Source: an uncultured Dehalococcoidia bacterium (lineage in GTDB: Bacteria > Chloroflexota > Dehalococcoidia > SM23-28-2 > RBG-16-64-32). Taken from it: 64,000 nucleotides of DNA. How positions within the stretch are numbered: the stretch's first letter is position 1; each line of letters begins with the position of its first letter. Shown here in pieces: positions 22,390 to 27,876 of this stretch. The stretch spans positions 37,520 through 101,519 of the forward strand of contig CAZLDI010000010.1 in NCBI GenBank assembly GCA_964558415.1. Direction: 5' to 3'. Below the pieces are notes generated by a model. That model worked only from the letters and a program-made list of their open reading frames with translations. It was not told where the DNA came from and did not search any database. A program made the position numbers and the translations under genes.

Positions 22390-22528
22390 CACCCGCATAG
22401 TGAGCAGCTTCCAACAGATCTCGTACCCGCCGCGGCTTCGGCCCTGCGGGCCGCCCCCGTAGCTGCAGCGGCTTCAGCCCTGCCTCATCGCCGAAGGCCA
22501 CTCCCCCGCCTGGCACCCACCCCCGTCG

Positions 22529-22634
22529 CCCTCTGACCCCTTGCCCCTCTGACCCCTTGCCCCTCGCCCCTCTGCCCCCTGTCCCCTGCCCCCCTGACAT
22601 CTGTCATCTAACATCTATCATCTATAATCTCCCC
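22529..22634. repeat. C-rich simple-repeat tract followed by phased CATCT repeats running into a TATAAT box
   Basis: ccctctgaccccttgc appears twice perfectly (22529-22560). Degenerate cccct units follow, then gacatctgtcatctaacatctatcatctataat. TATAAT sits at 22623-22628, 6 nt before ATG 22635. Confidence 0.8.
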
Positions 22635-22946
22635 ATGGACACCGTCTTCCAGCAGCTAAAGCAATCCCTCGACGCCCGCGAGCCCGCCGTGCTCGCCACC
22701 GTCGCCGCCACGCGCGGCTCCACCCCGCGCAGCCCCGGCGCCCGCATGCTCGTCCGCCCGGACGGCGTCACCTGCGGCACCATCGGCGGCGGCTGCGGCG
22801 AATCCGAAGTCATCTACGCCGCCATGGAAGTCCACGCCGACGGCCGTCCCCGCCTCGTCCACGTAGACCTCACCAACCCCATCGACGGCGACGACAAGAT
22901 CTGCGGCGGCGTCATGGACATCTTCCTCGAGCGCATCGACCCGTAG
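22635..22946 (+). CDS. XdhC_CoxI N-terminal-domain-only protein
   Basis: Sequence: MDTVFQQLKQSLDAREPAVLATVAATRGSTPRSPGARMLVRPDG...GTIGGGCGE...GGVMDIFLERI. The internal ATG 22635 is preferred because of the TATAAT-N6 context. Confidence 0.7.
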   Translation: MDTVFQQLKQSLDAREPAVLATVAATRGSTPRSPGARMLVRPDGVTCGTIGGGCGESEVIYAAMEVHADGRPRLVHVDLTNPIDGDDKICGGVMDIFLERIDP

Positions 22947-23030
22947 GAGCGCGTTTCAAACCCGCCCGCCGCTCACGGACCCGGGTGGAGGGTGGGTGCC
23001 CAGTCTCGCATGCTAAAATCGAACCCCGCC

Positions 23031-23222
23031 ATGGCTCTCTCCGAAGCCGACACGCGCGCCAAGCTCATCGATCCCGCCCTCCACGCTCGAGGCTGGACCG
23101 AAGCCCTCATCCGCCGCGAAGAGACCGCGCCCGCCATCGAGATCATCGAAGGCAAAGCCCGCCGCAGCCCTCGCCCTGGCCGCGTCGACCACATCCTCCC
23201 GCCCCGGCCGCGCGCCCTTTGA
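23031..23222 (+). pseudogene. hsdR: Truncated type I restriction enzyme R subunit (HsdR) N-terminus
   Basis: MALSEADTRAKLIDPALHARGWTEALIRREETAP...GKARRSPRPGRVDHIL matches the conserved first ~55 residues of HsdR-type enzymes (SEADTRAKLIDP..GW...DY.L). The frame then terminates, and no helicase domains follow. Confidence 0.6.
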
Positions 23223-23264
23223 GAGAGCCACGATCTGCTCCTCCGTGAAGCGACTTCGTGGCAT
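23222..23264 (-). mobile_element. Stub of an IS3-family orfA (transposase HTH) gene
   Basis: AGGAGG-N6-ATG is followed by MPRSRFTEEQIVAL, which matches the usual IS3/IS407-type OrfA N-terminus. Similarity ends after about 14 codons, where the frame runs antisense into the hsdR remnant. Confidence 0.35.
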
Positions 23265-23372
23265 CTCGGTCCTCCTATCGTTCCCTGGAACGCGCCAAGA
23301 CGGGCGCCTGTTTAGACGGGAGGACCGCGATTTAAAGTGGAGCAGGTCACACATGGTGTGCAATTGCATGCC

Positions 23373-23401
23373 TTGACTGCCGAACAGGCGTTCTGTACTA
23401 T
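23373..23401 (+). promoter_or_regulatory. Promoter TTGACT-17-TACTAT immediately upstream of the methyltransferase gene
   Basis: TTGACT at 23373-23378 and TACTAT at 23396-23401. The first ATG (23404) is only 2 nt downstream, so the real start may be ATG 23413 on a near-leaderless mRNA. Confidence 0.45.
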
Positions 23402-23403
23402 CA

Positions 23404-25587
23404 ATGACTAATATGACGAAAGAGAATGAAGTTGAAAAAGCGAGTCGGTGTGCCCTCGAGGATGATAGCTTCCCGTTTGAGGAATTAAGCCGAATCGCAG
23501 AAGTCGAAAGCTGGCGAAAGGAAATATATCGCCCCACTTACCACATGCATAAGTGGTGGGCACAACGTCTCGGCTCCGTATTCAGAGGAATCCTCATCGG
23601 GGCTCTAACGGAGCCGGGTGGGGAAGTCCTAGCGAGGTTTTATCGTCCCGTGCGGCTGAAGGGTATCGTCTTCGATCCATTTATGGGGAGCGGCACAACC
23701 ATAGGGGAAGCCCTGAAGCTCGGCCTTCGTGCTGTCGGAAGGGACATTAACCCGGTATCAGAATTTATCGTGAGGGTCGCGCTTGCCAAGCATGATCGTT
23801 CGAAAGTGGAAGCTGAATTCGCTTCCATCGAACGTGATGTCCGCGATGCGATAAGGAAACGTTACCAGTGCCTTGGGCCGGATGGATCGGTGGTTGACGC
23901 CTTGTACTTCTTTTGGGTCAAGGTAGTTCGCTGTCCGGGCTGCGACCGAGACGTGGATCTGTTCTCGTCATACGTTTTCGCCAAAAATGCCTACGCTCAT
24001 CGGATTCCGCGGTGCAGAGTTATCTGCCGTGGATGCGGAGAGGTAGGCGAGGCGAAGTACGGCGAGCACAATTACGAATGTTCGTCATGCCACGATGAGT
24101 TCGATCCCATAGTCGGGCCAGTGCGAGGCGCCAAGGTCCAGTGTGGCTACTGCCGGCAGGATTTCTCCATAGCAAACGCCGTTCGCCGCGAGGGAGGACC
24201 ACCCCGGCATCGGATGTATGCCAAGCTCGTACTGCACAAGCAAGGCCGGAAGACGTACTTGCGGACAACGGCAGGGGACGCGCTGGCCTATGAAGAGGCA
24301 GCCACCGAGCTCAGCCGCCGACCTGGCTTATTCCCGGTCGTATCACTGGCGGACGGACACAACACAAAGCAGGTCTTGAACTATGGGTACCGATACTGGC
24401 ACGAGATGTTCAACGAACGGCAGCTGTTATGCCTGGGCCTTCTAGCGGAGCGCATTCGCTCCATAGGCGATACCAAGCTCCGGGATCTATTCATTACCCT
24501 ATTCTCCGGAACCCTCGAATTTAGCAACATGTTCGCGTCTTACAAGGGCGAGGGCACTGGCGCCGTAAGGCATATGTTCTCACATCACGTTTTGAAGCCT
24601 GAGAGGATGCCGATAGAGGCTAACGTGTGGGGCACAAGCAAGAGTTCTGGCTCGTTCGCGACCTTGTTCAAGTCCCGAGTGCTTCGAGCGCTCGATTACG
24701 CTGATCGGCCGTTCGAGATTAGAGCCAACGGTGGCGAAAAGAAGATTTTTTTCCTATCAGATTCGATGGGGTATGAGGCAAGTCGAACCTTTGGTGAGTT
24801 CAACGAAGGGAACGTAGCCGTCTATCTTTCGTGTGGGGATTCCGCAGACACGGATTTGCCGGATGAGAGCATAGACGCAATCGTGACGGACCCTCCCTTT
24901 TTTGACAACGTGCACTATTCAGAGCTCGCGGATTTCTTCTACGTCTGGCAGCAACATGTGGTTCACGGGCCTTCCGGGGGCACTACAACACGACGAGAAG
25001 GAGAGGTTCAATCGACCGACGCCGATATCTTCGCACGTCGGTTGATGGGTGTACTGAGAGAGTGTAAACGTGTTCTCAAGCGTAACGGAATATTGGCGTT
25101 CACGTACCACCATTCGCGACCGGATGGCTGGAAGGCGGTACTCTCGGCGGTTGTCAAGTCTGGCTTTTGGATTACCGCAGTTCAGCCCGTCAAATCGGAA
25201 ATGTCGGTAGCGACGCCCAAGAGTCGAGCGAGCCATCCGATTGACGTAGATGTTGTCTTCGTGTGTCGCAAGTCTGGCGTTGCCCAATTTCAGTCACGAC
25301 CGCTCAAGGATGTGGTAAGTGAGTCGCAACACGAGACGTTGAAGCAGGCTGACCGATTTCTTAAGGTCGGTCGCAGGCTGGGTTACGGCGACTTGAGGGT
25401 GGTCTTTTTCGCTCATATGATTCGACAACTCTCACACTTCGGAAGTGCAGATGAGGCCGATGAACTACTAAATCAACTAGATGACCGGGTCGAATCACTG
25501 GTCGATGGCCTGTGGCGCATCCATTCGGAGGAACCGGTGGTCCATCACGGTCAGTTACCACTCGTCGAGGAGGCGGCGTTGCCGTGA
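23404..25587 (+). CDS. DNA methyltransferase, DUF1156/COG1743-like with Zn-ribbon insertions (probably N6-adenine or N4-cytosine)
   Basis: DUF1156-like head: FPFEELS..HMHKWWAQRLG. Motif I is VFDPFMGSGTT, followed by GRDINPV. Two Cys4 clusters: CPGCDRD..CRGCGE and CSSCHDE..CGYCRQ. Motif IV is VTDPPFFDNVHYSELADFFYVW. G+C is lower than in the flanks. Confidence 0.8.
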   Translation: MTNMTKENEVEKASRCALEDDSFPFEELSRIAEVESWRKEIYRPTYHMHKWWAQRLGSVFRGILIGALTEPGGEVLARFYRPVRLKGIVFDPFMGSGTTIGEALKLGLRAVGRDINPVSEFIVRVALAKHDRSKVEAEFASIERDVRDAIRKRYQCLGPDGSVVDALYFFWVKVVRCPGCDRDVDLFSSYVFAKNAYAHRIPRCRVICRGCGEVGEAKYGEHNYECSSCHDEFDPIVGPVRGAKVQCGYCRQDFSIANAVRREGGPPRHRMYAKLVLHKQGRKTYLRTTAGDALAYEEAATELSRRPGLFPVVSLADGHNTKQVLNYGYRYWHEMFNERQLLCLGLLAERIRSIGDTKLRDLFITLFSGTLEFSNMFASYKGEGTGAVRHMFSHHVLKPERMPIEANVWGTSKSSGSFATLFKSRVLRALDYADRPFEIRANGGEKKIFFLSDSMGYEASRTFGEFNEGNVAVYLSCGDSADTDLPDESIDAIVTDPPFFDNVHYSELADFFYVWQQHVVHGPSGGTTTRREGEVQSTDADIFARRLMGVLRECKRVLKRNGILAFTYHHSRPDGWKAVLSAVVKSGFWITAVQPVKSEMSVATPKSRASHPIDVDVVFVCRKSGVAQFQSRPLKDVVSESQHETLKQADRFLKVGRRLGYGDLRVVFFAHMIRQLSHFGSADEADELLNQLDDRVESLVDGLWRIHSEEPVVHHGQLPLVEEAALP

Positions 25588-26387
25588 CGGCTTGCCTCGA
25601 CGTTTTCGCCGAGTGCTATCGTGCGATCCGATCTGGCGTTCCAATCGTCCGCGAGAGTTCGCGAGACAAGGAATTCCACCTCCAAAACTGGGTCAGCGAC
25701 CGTCTTTCAGCGACGGGCCTGACATTTGAGGGTCGTGGTCGGAACGCGTATCCAGACTTCGTGCTGGTTGATCGGCCTGAGGGATATGAGGTCAAGGGCC
25801 TGGCGCATCCTGGCCGCGAATTAAACTACGACGCAAACAGCCAGATACCCACCGGTAAACATAGTGGACGCGACATCTTTTACGTCTTCGGGCGGTATCC
25901 CACGGGCGACCAGCGCGAGTTTGAGATCATTGATCTGATCATCAGTCACGGCAGTTTCCTGAACGCCGACGAGGACTACGTTCACAAGAACCAGCACATC
26001 AAAGCGTTTGGCAGCTACGGCGACATTATGATTCGGGATCGGAAAATGTACGTTGTCCCAACGCCTCTTGCGTTGACGGTGGGGACCCAGGGACACGCTA
26101 CTCTGATACTGCCTTCAGGAATCGAAGTTGATGATCGCGTAGTTCCAATCGGTGACCTAACCAGGATTGAGGCCGATCAGTTGGTAGTGGGCTATAACTT
26201 CGATCTGCGGACGAACAAGATCACGGCTCAGCTTATTCCGAATCCCCACGCGGGCCGTGAACATCGCTTCACCGCATATCGTATGAACGATGACAGCGAG
26301 CGGACTGTCTCACTTCGTGGCCAAGATGTTGTCGTCGCAGAGCACGAACGAGAACTGGGACGAAGCGAGGCCGAAGGCGACGAATAG
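25584..26387 (+). CDS. Putative PD-(D/E)XK-type restriction endonuclease (uncharacterised family)
   Basis: The GTG start overlaps the methylase stop (GTGA) and sits 8-9 nt after GAGGAGG. The candidate catalytic motif is NAYPDFVLVDRPEGYEVKG. I recognise no other family signature. Confidence 0.5.
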   Translation: MTACLDVFAECYRAIRSGVPIVRESSRDKEFHLQNWVSDRLSATGLTFEGRGRNAYPDFVLVDRPEGYEVKGLAHPGRELNYDANSQIPTGKHSGRDIFYVFGRYPTGDQREFEIIDLIISHGSFLNADEDYVHKNQHIKAFGSYGDIMIRDRKMYVVPTPLALTVGTQGHATLILPSGIEVDDRVVPIGDLTRIEADQLVVGYNFDLRTNKITAQLIPNPHAGREHRFTAYRMNDDSERTVSLRGQDVVVAEHERELGRSEAEGDE

Positions 26388-26420
26388 GTCCAGCAATGCT
26401 TTTGCTGAACATCTGGTCGT

Positions 26421-26771
26421 GTGAAAGACATTGATCGTTCAACCCTAGAATCGGCGATTCGGGATCAATTTCGAACTCAGGTAGCGTACCGGCGCTCCGA
26501 TGGTTCCATATCCGTACACGTGGTCGCCCCGATCGACATTCGCTTCGGCGAGACGGAAAAGACTGAGGCCACCGAGTATTTGTGGGCCTTTTGCTACGCC
26601 GAAGATCTTCCCGAGATGCATCGCTGTGATCGGATTCTCTCGGTTCGAGTGCTTGGTGAGCACTTCGACGCACGGGCGCTCCTCGATAGCTGGCCAACCA
26701 AGAAGTGGCCCTTACCGCAAGCTTGGCTGGTCCCCCGTCGATGGGACGCTGAGAAACCTGGCCAGACGTAA
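26421..26771 (+). CDS. Stand-alone WYL-domain-like protein
   Basis: QVAYRRSDGSISVHVVAPIDIRFGE...EYLWAFCYAEDLPEMHRCDRILSVRVLGEHFD fits the WYL pattern (i.Y...g....R.v.P......yL.a.C......r.FR.dRI.sv..l...F). No HTH is present. The start is GTG and the SD is weak. Confidence 0.5.
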   Translation: MKDIDRSTLESAIRDQFRTQVAYRRSDGSISVHVVAPIDIRFGETEKTEATEYLWAFCYAEDLPEMHRCDRILSVRVLGEHFDARALLDSWPTKKWPLPQAWLVPRRWDAEKPGQT

Positions 26772-26809
26772 GGGTAAGGGATGCGGGGAAGGTGGCTCCT
26801 ACCGCACTC

Positions 26810-26838
26810 TTTACACTCTAGCACATATGTGCTATACT
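26810..26838 (+). promoter_or_regulatory. Promoter TTTACA-17-TATACT containing a perfect 16-bp palindrome (operator candidate)
   Basis: TTTACA at 26810-26815 and TATACT at 26833-26838. The palindrome TAGCACATATGTGCTA at 26819-26834 fills the spacer and overlaps the -10 box. Confidence 0.55.
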
Positions 26839-26893: not shown

Positions 26894-27649
26894 ATGCCCT
26901 GCAGCGACAAGCACGGAACCTGTCCCGAGCGAGGCCGAAGGATACCAATCCGGTACGACTGGCCTGCGCAGAAGTACGAACTAGACCCGGAAGCCGAATC
27001 CGCGCTCAATCCGCGTGAATCCGCGGCCAAACCCGGTCCAAATGCATCCGTGCCCTCCGTGTCCTCCGTGGCCAAACCCGGCCGAGGCGGCCCCCGCCCC
27101 GGCTCCGGCCCCCCGAAAGGCAACCTCAACGCCCTCAAGCACGGCCGCTTCTCCACCCGCCACAAACAACTCCTCGAGGCCCTCCTCGTCGTCCCCGAGG
27201 CCCGCGAAGCGCTGATCTCCATCGCCAAACGCAACCGCCAGCGCGTCCGCAAAGCCGAACTCGAGGCCGCCTACCTCCTCATGCGCTGGCTCGCCCGCGA
27301 CAACCCCGCCGCCCTCCTCCCCACCCCTCCCCCGCCGGCGGCAGAAGAGTCTCCGCCCAGCGCAGGCCATACGGCCCGTCCGGGCGCTGAGGGTTCCGGC
27401 AACCAACCTCTCCCCTCTCCCGCGCACGGGAGAGAGGCCGGCCATGCGGCCCGTCCGGGGGGTGAGGTAAACGACCAAACCAAAAACGACCAGCTAATCC
27501 GGGCCCTCGCCAACATGCAACACGCCCTCGAAAAAAGAATTCTCCGAAAAACGACCAGACAACCCACCCCCAAAACCCCCCATCAACCAAACCCACCCAC
27601 CTCCGTCATCCCGACCGCAGCGCAGCGAAGTGGAGGGACCCGCCGCTGA
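26894..27649 (+). CDS. Hypothetical protein with basic GNLNALKHG motif and Pro-rich low-complexity tail
   Basis: A GAGGAGG SD lies 5 nt upstream and C-ending codons dominate. The core reads GGPRPGSGPPKGNLNALKHGRFSTRHKQLLEALLVVPEAREALISIAKRNRQRVRKAELEAAYLLMRW. I recognise no family. Confidence 0.5.
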   Translation: MPCSDKHGTCPERGRRIPIRYDWPAQKYELDPEAESALNPRESAAKPGPNASVPSVSSVAKPGRGGPRPGSGPPKGNLNALKHGRFSTRHKQLLEALLVVPEAREALISIAKRNRQRVRKAELEAAYLLMRWLARDNPAALLPTPPPPAAEESPPSAGHTARPGAEGSGNQPLPSPAHGREAGHAARPGGEVNDQTKNDQLIRALANMQHALEKRILRKTTRQPTPKTPHQPNPPTSVIPTAAQRSGGTRR

Positions 27650-27876
27650 CCCACGTCTGACCACCCGCAGCGCCCGCGACACCACCCACCCCTGTAGGGG
27701 CGTCGCATGCCGTCCCCACATACACCCCGCCGCCCTCCCGCACTCCCCGCAGGCATGCTGCGCCCTGACGCCCCGCATACCAATCACCCCCCTTCCCCCT
27801 TGCCCCTTGCCGTTTGCCCGCTTGCCCGTTTGTTGTATGCTCACCCCACCACCCACACACAAGGAGGACCACCCCG

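Follow-up and report, generated by a model that had tools for sequence, protein, structure and literature searches.

A horizontally acquired island with a predicted type II restriction-modification pair and a stand-alone WYL-domain gene in an uncultured Dehalococcoidia bacterium

We analysed a 64,000-nt stretch of DNA, here called the window, from an uncultured Dehalococcoidia bacterium (contig CAZLDI010000010.1, positions 37,520 to 101,519). It contains an AT-richer island of ~3.5 kb with three co-oriented genes, which encode a DNA methyltransferase (M), a predicted restriction endonuclease (R) and a 116-amino-acid (aa) protein made up of a WYL domain without a DNA-binding domain (Table 1). 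The reading we favour is that the island is an acquired type II restriction-modification (R-M) operon accompanied by a nucleic-acid-sensing, WYL-only accessory, and as a whole we consider it rather probable. Its parts differ in strength. Judged from sequence and gene order, M and R very probably constitute a type II R-M pair, whereas for a functional tie between the WYL gene and R-M systems the arguments on the two sides are evenly balanced. The R-M pair would be an ordinary module of an unannotated family, and the WYL-only accessory would be the unusual element and possibly a new one.

The origin of the island was examined by base composition. In 500-nt sliding windows, G+C is 0.53-0.59 between 23250 and 26750 and 0.65-0.70 on either side, and the island (23263-26790) has 55.0% G+C compared with 64.3% over the whole window. 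The G+C content at third codon positions (GC3) is 0.607, 0.616 and 0.607 in the three island genes, whereas the flanking PAS-GGDEF-EAL, XdhC-like, alcohol-dehydrogenase and Kelch genes have values of 0.82-0.94. Because the low G+C is accompanied by matching GC3 values unlike those of the host genes, the island is compositionally foreign and horizontally acquired, and its three genes look as if they arrived together. A first-pass annotation, made from the letters of the window and a list of its open reading frames (ORFs), had described both the AT-richer island and the three co-oriented ORFs, and these descriptions agree with the sliding-window G+C, the GC3 values and the ORF list; its estimate of about 50% G+C was somewhat low.

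A methyltransferase-nuclease pair of an unannotated family

M matched the Pfam model N6_N4_Mtase with 57.6 bits (cut-off 26.7), the PHROGs family phrog_10183, 'DNA methyltransferase' (E=4.5e-108), and the PADLOC model MTase_II (E=1.8e-25); a search of PDB sequences with M gave nothing relevant. Its motif I, DPFMGSGTT (residues 91-99), lies ~400 residues before motif IV, TDPPF (residues 495-499), an order that is permuted relative to the Pfam model. Since motif IV reads DPPF, the sequence suggests that M is an N6-adenine enzyme, following the rule that separates (D/N)PP(Y/F) from SPP(Y/F) enzymes by the base they methylate. An alignment of 83 M homologues encoded in the fetched loci has 144 positions with at least 95% conservation, among them D91-T99 of motif I, T495-P498 of motif IV, the N-terminal head F23-P24...H49-K50-W51-W52-A53-x-R55, and C208, C211 and C226. 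M carries four CxxC pairs, and the S-adenosylmethionine-binding motif I, distant motif IV and two Cys4 clusters named in the first-pass annotation are all present. One cluster (C208, C211, C226, C229) is family-wide, with at least 93% conservation in the 83 homologues, and the other (C177, C180, C247, C250) is found in about one third of them. The label 'DUF1156-type', also given earlier, stands for the resemblance of the N-terminal head and not for membership of the family. The DUF1156 model (PF06634) aligned with residues 23-71 at 15.0 bits, under its cut-off of 24, and the NCBIfam model NF042963 (DUF1156_antiphage) gave 96.8 bits, far under its cut-off of 1000; M was thus rejected as a member of the DUF1156 antiphage family.

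For the second gene, the ORF list gives 25512-26387 (291 aa), and homologues support the GTG codon at 25584 as the start, yielding a product of 267 aa. This GTG overlaps the stop codon of M (TGA, 25585-25587) as GTGA behind a Shine-Dalgarno sequence, an arrangement that had been read correctly before. No Pfam (including Endonuc-EcoRV), NCBIfam, PADLOC or PHROGs model matched R, a phmmer search of PDB sequences returned nothing relevant, DARPin noise alone, and no match was found in phages, in line with the earlier remark that the family cannot be tied to a characterised enzyme. R has at least 3470 relatives, counted as protein clusters at E <= 1e-3, all named ones of which are called 'hypothetical', and a scan of one genome per species found relatives in at least 509 species. 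In an alignment of 39 sequences from many phyla, 70 positions of R are invariant, including D28-K29-E30, P57-D58 and E69-x-K71, and the motif reads YPDF...EGYEVKG.

Structure prediction placed these residues in a recognisable core. In the AlphaFold (AF2) model of R (mean predicted local distance difference test score, pLDDT, 87.2; predicted template modelling score 0.88), D58 stands just before strand 59-61, E69 and K71 lie within strand 66-75, and helix 32-43 precedes them, an arrangement that in the model is the canonical PD-(D/E)XK core. When the model was compared with the PDB by Foldseek, each of the 17 best matches was a type IIP restriction endonuclease, EcoRV (E=4e-4, probability 1.0), BglI, SfiI, NlaIV and HincII leading the list. 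From the model we conclude that R is a predicted PD-(D/E)XK nuclease, distantly EcoRV-like. The first-pass annotation had seen a PD-(D/E)XK-like motif here, and had held that a missing nuclease fold or variable D/E/K residues would speak against a nuclease. The best structural matches are type II restriction endonucleases, and P57, D58, E69 and K71 do not vary among the 39 homologues.

The pairing of the two genes was surveyed in 86 loci carrying the R gene. An M homologue (41-58% identity) is directly adjacent to R in 85 of them, in many phyla. R precedes M on the same strand in 80 loci, M precedes R on the same strand, as in the window, in four, and M is on the opposite strand in one; at the remaining locus the contig leaves no room for M. 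The closest relatives of the pair, in L091, L092 and a JGI contig (64-70% identity), likewise have M before R, the two genes overlapping by 4 or 8 nt, and within this M-then-R clade the closest relatives come from metagenome-assembled genomes of Chloroflexota. The pair was found on four plasmids in all, among them an 8.2-kb MOBQ plasmid of Tabrizicola piscis and the 65-kb conjugative plasmid pACMV2 of Acidiphilium multivorum, on both of which it is annotated as 'hypothetical protein' plus 'DNA methyltransferase'. Other carriers include Alcanivorax borkumensis SK2, Xanthomonas translucens and Peribacillus sp. SCS-26. The genes neighbouring the pair vary between genomes, and no helicase, ATPase, PglZ or other constant partner was found in the window or the surveyed loci, R being the only constant neighbour of M. 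Such M-R synteny, with variable neighbours and plasmid carriage, is characteristic of mobile type II R-M modules. Behind the R-M pair, the Tabrizicola piscis plasmid (L095 4592-6936) encodes a DUF262 (GmrSD-like) protein and a HEPN-like nuclease, so that the whole plasmid is essentially a stack of defence genes.

The R family is thus very widespread and strongly conserved, but all annotated records inspected label it 'hypothetical'. Recognising R as a type II R-M nuclease would correct many genome annotations and censuses of defence systems. The pair itself is probably a single-specificity enzyme pair.

The WYL-only protein and its genomic contexts

The product of the third gene matched the Pfam WYL model (PF13280) with 22.9 bits, narrowly over the cut-off of 21.8, and the PADLOC WYL model with E=2.4e-7; nothing relevant was found among PDB sequences. 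Its AF2 model (pLDDT 85.7) shows a single helix followed by a barrel of five strands and a short tail. The top Foldseek matches of the model are the WYL domains of PafBC, CapW, BrxR and DriD (probability 1.0, TMq 0.55-0.63), on which it superposes with a root-mean-square deviation (rmsd) of ~2 Å over ~85 columns, and several of the matched WYL structures were solved with single-stranded DNA (ssDNA). Weaker matches are to Hfq. R68 is invariant, and the loop HRCDRI that contains the conserved arginine of these domains aligns with FRFDRI of PafC. Neither Pfam, NCBIfam nor PADLOC identified a helix-turn-helix (HTH) domain, and just 16 residues, forming one helix, precede the barrel. Likewise, there is no WCX (ferredoxin-like) domain; the barrel is followed by no more than ~30 residues, which include two short helices and have low pLDDT past residue 100. 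The proposal that this protein has a WYL fold and no DNA-binding domain is therefore supported by the Pfam score, the Foldseek matches and the lack of an HTH. The Trp-rich tail, with W91, W96 and W102, is conserved in the short WYL family.

The reality of the gene was examined by codon positions. Five homologues show 64-75 differences at third positions versus 23-40 at positions 1 and 2 in the plus-strand frame, and because third-position changes dominate, the 116-aa WYL gene is real and under purifying selection. On two metagenome contigs that are 100% identical to this region, the public gene calls lack the WYL gene and give a 72-aa ORF on the minus strand at its position instead (L089 3853-4071; L090 2340-2558; equivalent to 26445-26663 of the window). 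The WYL protein is absent from the protein collection because of this call, and similar miscalls may hide other members. A 73-aa minus-strand ORF also follows R in L092; no WYL similarity was found there. We also considered whether the gene is a decayed HTH-WYL regulator, and rejected this, as it starts 33 nt behind the R stop, all short-family members spanning the full profile have 105-145 aa and the gene is under purifying selection.

The family is small. Close homologues number three among 5.8 billion proteins, and an exhaustive profile search added ~10 further clusters of proteins of roughly 75-145 aa, with more distant matches that include proteins of 170-340 aa with a C-terminal WYL domain. 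A narrower WYL alignment, scanned against the collections, returned two metagenome loci only, and there was no match in plasmids by tblastn or in viral contigs by a pattern scan confirmed by tblastn.

Six contexts of the short family are known, and all six hold a type II R or M gene within ~1 kb, of four R-M types. In the window the WYL gene starts 33 nt after R, in L006 it starts 9 nt after the C-terminus of an R, and in L007 ~90 nt after a 74%-identical R. In L008 it lies 3 nt after a different type II methylase, in L093 it is convergent with an EcoRV-family nuclease (Pfam E=1e-60), and in L094 it stands in an operon downstream of a pair of MamI-like nuclease and N6_Mtase, 10 nt behind an intervening Rex-like gene. 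As a control, we inspected 235-aa WYL relatives from Anaerolineae, which adjoin nuo and rpsU genes; their housekeeping contexts indicate that the R-M linkage is specific to the short family. They belong to a large family of 235-aa proteins (Anaerolineae/Chloroflexota) in which the N-terminal half is hydrophobic and probably spans the membrane, and the WYL domain, which carries the Trp-rich tail of the short family, is C-terminal; many are annotated as 'YafY' regulators, though no HTH is evident. If the short proteins are what they appear to be, a free-standing WYL domain beside four R-M types would couple restriction to a nucleic-acid signal in a new way. Such proteins would, moreover, offer a simple system for studying a lone WYL domain, these domains being known as sensors fused to DNA-binding domains.

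Borders and neighbours of the island

At the left edge of the island lies a 76-aa ORF (22992-23222) that is probably the 5' remnant of an hsdR gene (Table 1). It resembles the first ~55 residues of an EcoAI-type HsdR and then ends, has a GC3 of 0.78, and matched the NCBIfam EcoAI/FtnUII R-subunit model with E=8e-4, residues 16-69 aligning with model positions 1-56 of 768. Other matches were weak (Pfam HSDR_N, E=0.29; PADLOC REase_I, E=0.047). The truncated hsdR gene that the first-pass annotation placed at this edge is thus weakly supported, by co-linear profile matches, and the defence-island turnover read from it is plausible, if weakly documented. The borders of the island were searched for flanking direct repeats, a tRNA gene and Rfam elements, and none were found. 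A candidate remnant of the N terminus of an IS3-family OrfA on the minus strand (23264-23217; MPRSRFTEEQIVALSK), which abuts the hsdR remnant, was not confirmed: Pfam returned nothing, tblastn matches had E >= 0.5, and just some of these fell under IS3 transposase annotations.

The promoter-like site directly upstream of M is suggestive at most, as the region holds four such sites versus 2.0 +/- 1.5 in shuffled sequences, i.e. no enrichment. A palindrome at 23352-23375 overlaps it.

Table 1 Features of the island and its left edge, and 235-aa WYL relatives in other loci
Feature	Position	Strand	Remarks
Probable hsdR 5' remnant (~60-70 codons; type I restriction R subunit)	window 22992..23222	+	Island left edge; weak co-linear profile matches
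Sigma-70-like promoter match (TTGACT, 17-nt spacer, TACTAT)	window 23373..23401	+	Consensus scan, 9 of 12; directly upstream of methylase start
727-aa DNA methyltransferase (M)	window 23404..25587	+	DUF1156-like head, motif I, ~390-aa insert with Zn ribbons, motif IV (DPPF)
Shine-Dalgarno sequence GAGGAGG for the R gene	window 25569..25575	+	Read from the sequence; inside the end of the M gene, 8 nt before GTG 25584
267-aa predicted type II restriction endonuclease (R), PD-(D/E)XK, EcoRV-like fold	window 25584..26387	+	Start overlaps M stop as GTGA
116-aa WYL-only protein	window 26421..26771	+	N-terminal helix, Sm-like beta-barrel, Trp-rich tail (WP..KWPLP..W...RRW)
235-aa WYL relative	L097 6001-6708		
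235-aa WYL relative	L098 3118-3825		
235-aa WYL relative	L099 6001-6708		

Several further observations concern the surroundings. Directly to the right of the island, a promoter-like site with an extended -10 element (26810-26838) is followed by a 251-aa ORF (26894-27649, plus strand) that is rich in G+C, with a strongly negative GC skew and short internal repeats. Its 'GNLNALKHGRFS' stretch gave sub-threshold matches to terminase small subunits (NCBIfam E=1.4e-4, PHROG E=0.009), and tblastn found no phage match for the ORF. Arrays of the C-rich heptamer CCCCTTG, with super-periods of 16 and 23 nt, occur at 22528-22598, just upstream of an XdhC-like ORF, and at 27789-27832, at the start of the alcohol-dehydrogenase gene, and the island lies in the 5.2-kb segment that they bracket; a 20-mer of the arrays has four copies in the window compared with 0.02 expected. 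The 129-aa ORF at 22557-22946 (plus strand) consists of the XdhC_CoxI N-terminal domain alone (Pfam E=3e-27), is short for an XdhC-type protein and may be truncated.

Proposed working, alternatives and comparison with known systems

In the working that we propose, M would protect the host copies of one recognition sequence, with the Zn-ribbon insert separating motif I from motif IV, at the place expected for a target-recognition domain. R would be a Mg2+-dependent PD-(D/E)XK endonuclease of the EcoRV structural branch that cuts unmethylated copies of the sequence recognised by M, with D58, E69 and K71 as predicted catalytic residues and E30 on the preceding helix. The M-then-R order and the GTGA overlap would make synthesis of R depend on prior translation of M, which would be a simple way of keeping R below M. 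The WYL gene probably came in with the M-R pair as an optional accessory. Its product would most likely bind a nucleic-acid ligand, for which ssDNA is the leading candidate because solved WYL domains bind ssDNA, and the signal would be relayed back to the R-M module by protein contacts or through RNA, without operator binding. The Trp-rich tail is conserved across contexts with different nucleases, which suggests that its partner is generic, either nucleic acid or some host factor, and not one specific R or M. By analogy with the solved domains, sensing of ssDNA by the WYL protein is a tentative mechanism that we put forward with considerable doubt. Broader still is the idea that the WYL-only proteins of 105-145 aa form a new, HTH-less class of accessories to type II R-M systems. 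Each would act as a portable sensor that responds to single-stranded nucleic acid, arising for example from self-restriction or infection, and tunes the activity or expression of the nuclease through the Trp-rich tail or at the RNA level, whichever R-M enzyme it accompanies. We think this generalization unlikely at present.

Several observations weigh against the reading of an R-M operon with a sensing accessory. For R, the TM-scores of the Foldseek matches are low (0.35-0.39, rmsd 6-7 Å), and hhalign gave a probability of 9% to the comparison with the EcoRV-family sequence of L093, in which only NAYPDFVLV aligned with NYYPDFTLV. For the WYL protein, no output domain is recognisable, which makes any route from ligand to effect speculative. 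Two arginines that flank the WYL motif contact ssDNA in CapW (RWHVR; PMC11662680); they are absent here, where the corresponding stretch is EYLWAFC. The known contexts are six, most of them on short contigs and three from one lineage, and in L094 the WYL gene does not adjoin the R-M pair, as the Rex-like gene stands between them. No WYL relative was found by tblastn and profile scans of all fetched loci near any of more than 80 other R-M pairs, and the gene is missing even from the 64-66%-identical relatives L091 and L092. These absences indicate that the WYL gene is dispensable for the R-M system; it is an optional accessory outside the conserved M-R module. Correspondingly, the first-pass expectation that all three genes would be syntenic elsewhere holds for M and R, and for the WYL gene in the closest relatives L006 and L007 only.

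The same absences could be explained if the WYL gene were a passenger of defence or mobile islands, a chance neighbour of R-M modules with no functional link to them. The WYL gene of L093 has a promoter-like TGTATAAT of its own and is convergent with the nuclease, that of L094 follows a Rex-like gene, and the longer relatives are found in housekeeping contexts, all of which is consistent with a passenger. However, a type II R or M gene lies near the WYL gene in every one of the short-family contexts and across four R-M types, five of the six WYL genes are co-oriented with and <100 nt from the upstream gene, and the GC3 of the WYL gene matches the R-M genes and not the host. We therefore hold a mere passenger to be the less probable explanation, though one to be taken seriously.

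A second alternative is that the WYL protein is an analogue of controller (C) proteins, an oligomer that binds an operator, or the operon mRNA in the manner of Hfq, and times or limits the expression of R in a new host. The Sm-like fold with its weaker matches to Hfq, the small size, the operonic position with several R-M types, like that of C proteins, and the palindrome and promoter-like site upstream of the operon all fit such a role. However, the protein has no HTH, its gene is the last of the operon and not upstream of R, and most members of this R-M family lack it, which together render a controller decidedly improbable.

It is very improbable that the module belongs, as a piece or a variant, to the DUF1156-methylase defence systems (Hma, type-1-like BREX/PglXI or MADS), in which M would work with other partners. 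Partial PADLOC matches to HmaB (E=2.7e-25), PglXI (E=1.6e-22), DUF1156_MTase (E=1.6e-19) and mad2 point in this direction, as do the 96.8 bits against DUF1156_antiphage; both DUF1156 scores are under their cut-offs, however, and despite the PADLOC matches a BREX-, Hma- or MADS-like reading is argued against because no helicase, ATPase or PglZ partner accompanies M in the window or the surveyed loci, where its sole constant neighbour is R. Equally slight is the chance that R is a DNA-binding or specificity partner of M on an inactivated PD-(D/E)XK scaffold, as its modest similarity to restriction endonucleases and lack of a family assignment might suggest, since inactivated scaffolds usually lose such residues as D58, E69, K71 and E30, here invariant in 39 diverse sequences, and since small plasmids carry the pair, as they do addictive R-M modules.

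Compared with known systems, the M-R pair resembles the type IIP systems of the EcoRV branch (EcoRV, HincII, NlaIV, BglI, SfiI) in having a separate M gene and a nuclease gene of ~250-270 aa, in the PD...(D/E)xK residues at the same structural position, with YPDF of R aligned to YPDF of an EcoRV-family protein, and in its carriage on plasmids and in genomic islands. It differs in that R has no sequence homology to this branch detectable by phmmer against the PDB, the Pfam model Endonuc-EcoRV or hhalign, and in that its partner is a 700-aa permuted N6_N4-type enzyme with Zn ribbons, whereas M.EcoRV is a Dam-like alpha-class enzyme. With the DUF1156-type methyltransferases (NF042963, HmaB/PglXI/DUF1156_MTase), M shares the N-terminal head FP...HKWWAxR, partial profile matches, and a motif I that precedes motif IV with a long insert between them. 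In contrast to those enzymes of 920-970 aa, M and its relatives have ~700-730 aa, and the constant partner of M is a small nuclease and not a helicase or ATPase.

Like C proteins, the WYL protein is a small accessory in the operons of several unrelated type II R-M systems, and of a subset of them only. C proteins, by comparison, dimerize, have an HTH of the XRE type and bind C-boxes that lie upstream of the C-R unit, whereas the WYL protein has no HTH and is encoded last in its operon. An HTH is present in more than 90% of WYL proteins (PMC6789036), and the HTH-WYL regulators CapW and BrxR, which accompany R-M systems among others, sense ssDNA (PMC11662680). The 116-aa protein differs from the wHTH-WYL-WCX regulators CapW, BrxR, PafBC and DriD in having neither a winged HTH nor a WCX domain, and in the absence of the flanking arginines of the CapW type. 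It has in common with them the Sm-like barrel of the WYL domain and the conserved arginine of the RxDRI loop, and with CapW and BrxR, which are reported next to R-M systems (PMC11662680), a gene beside a defence system.

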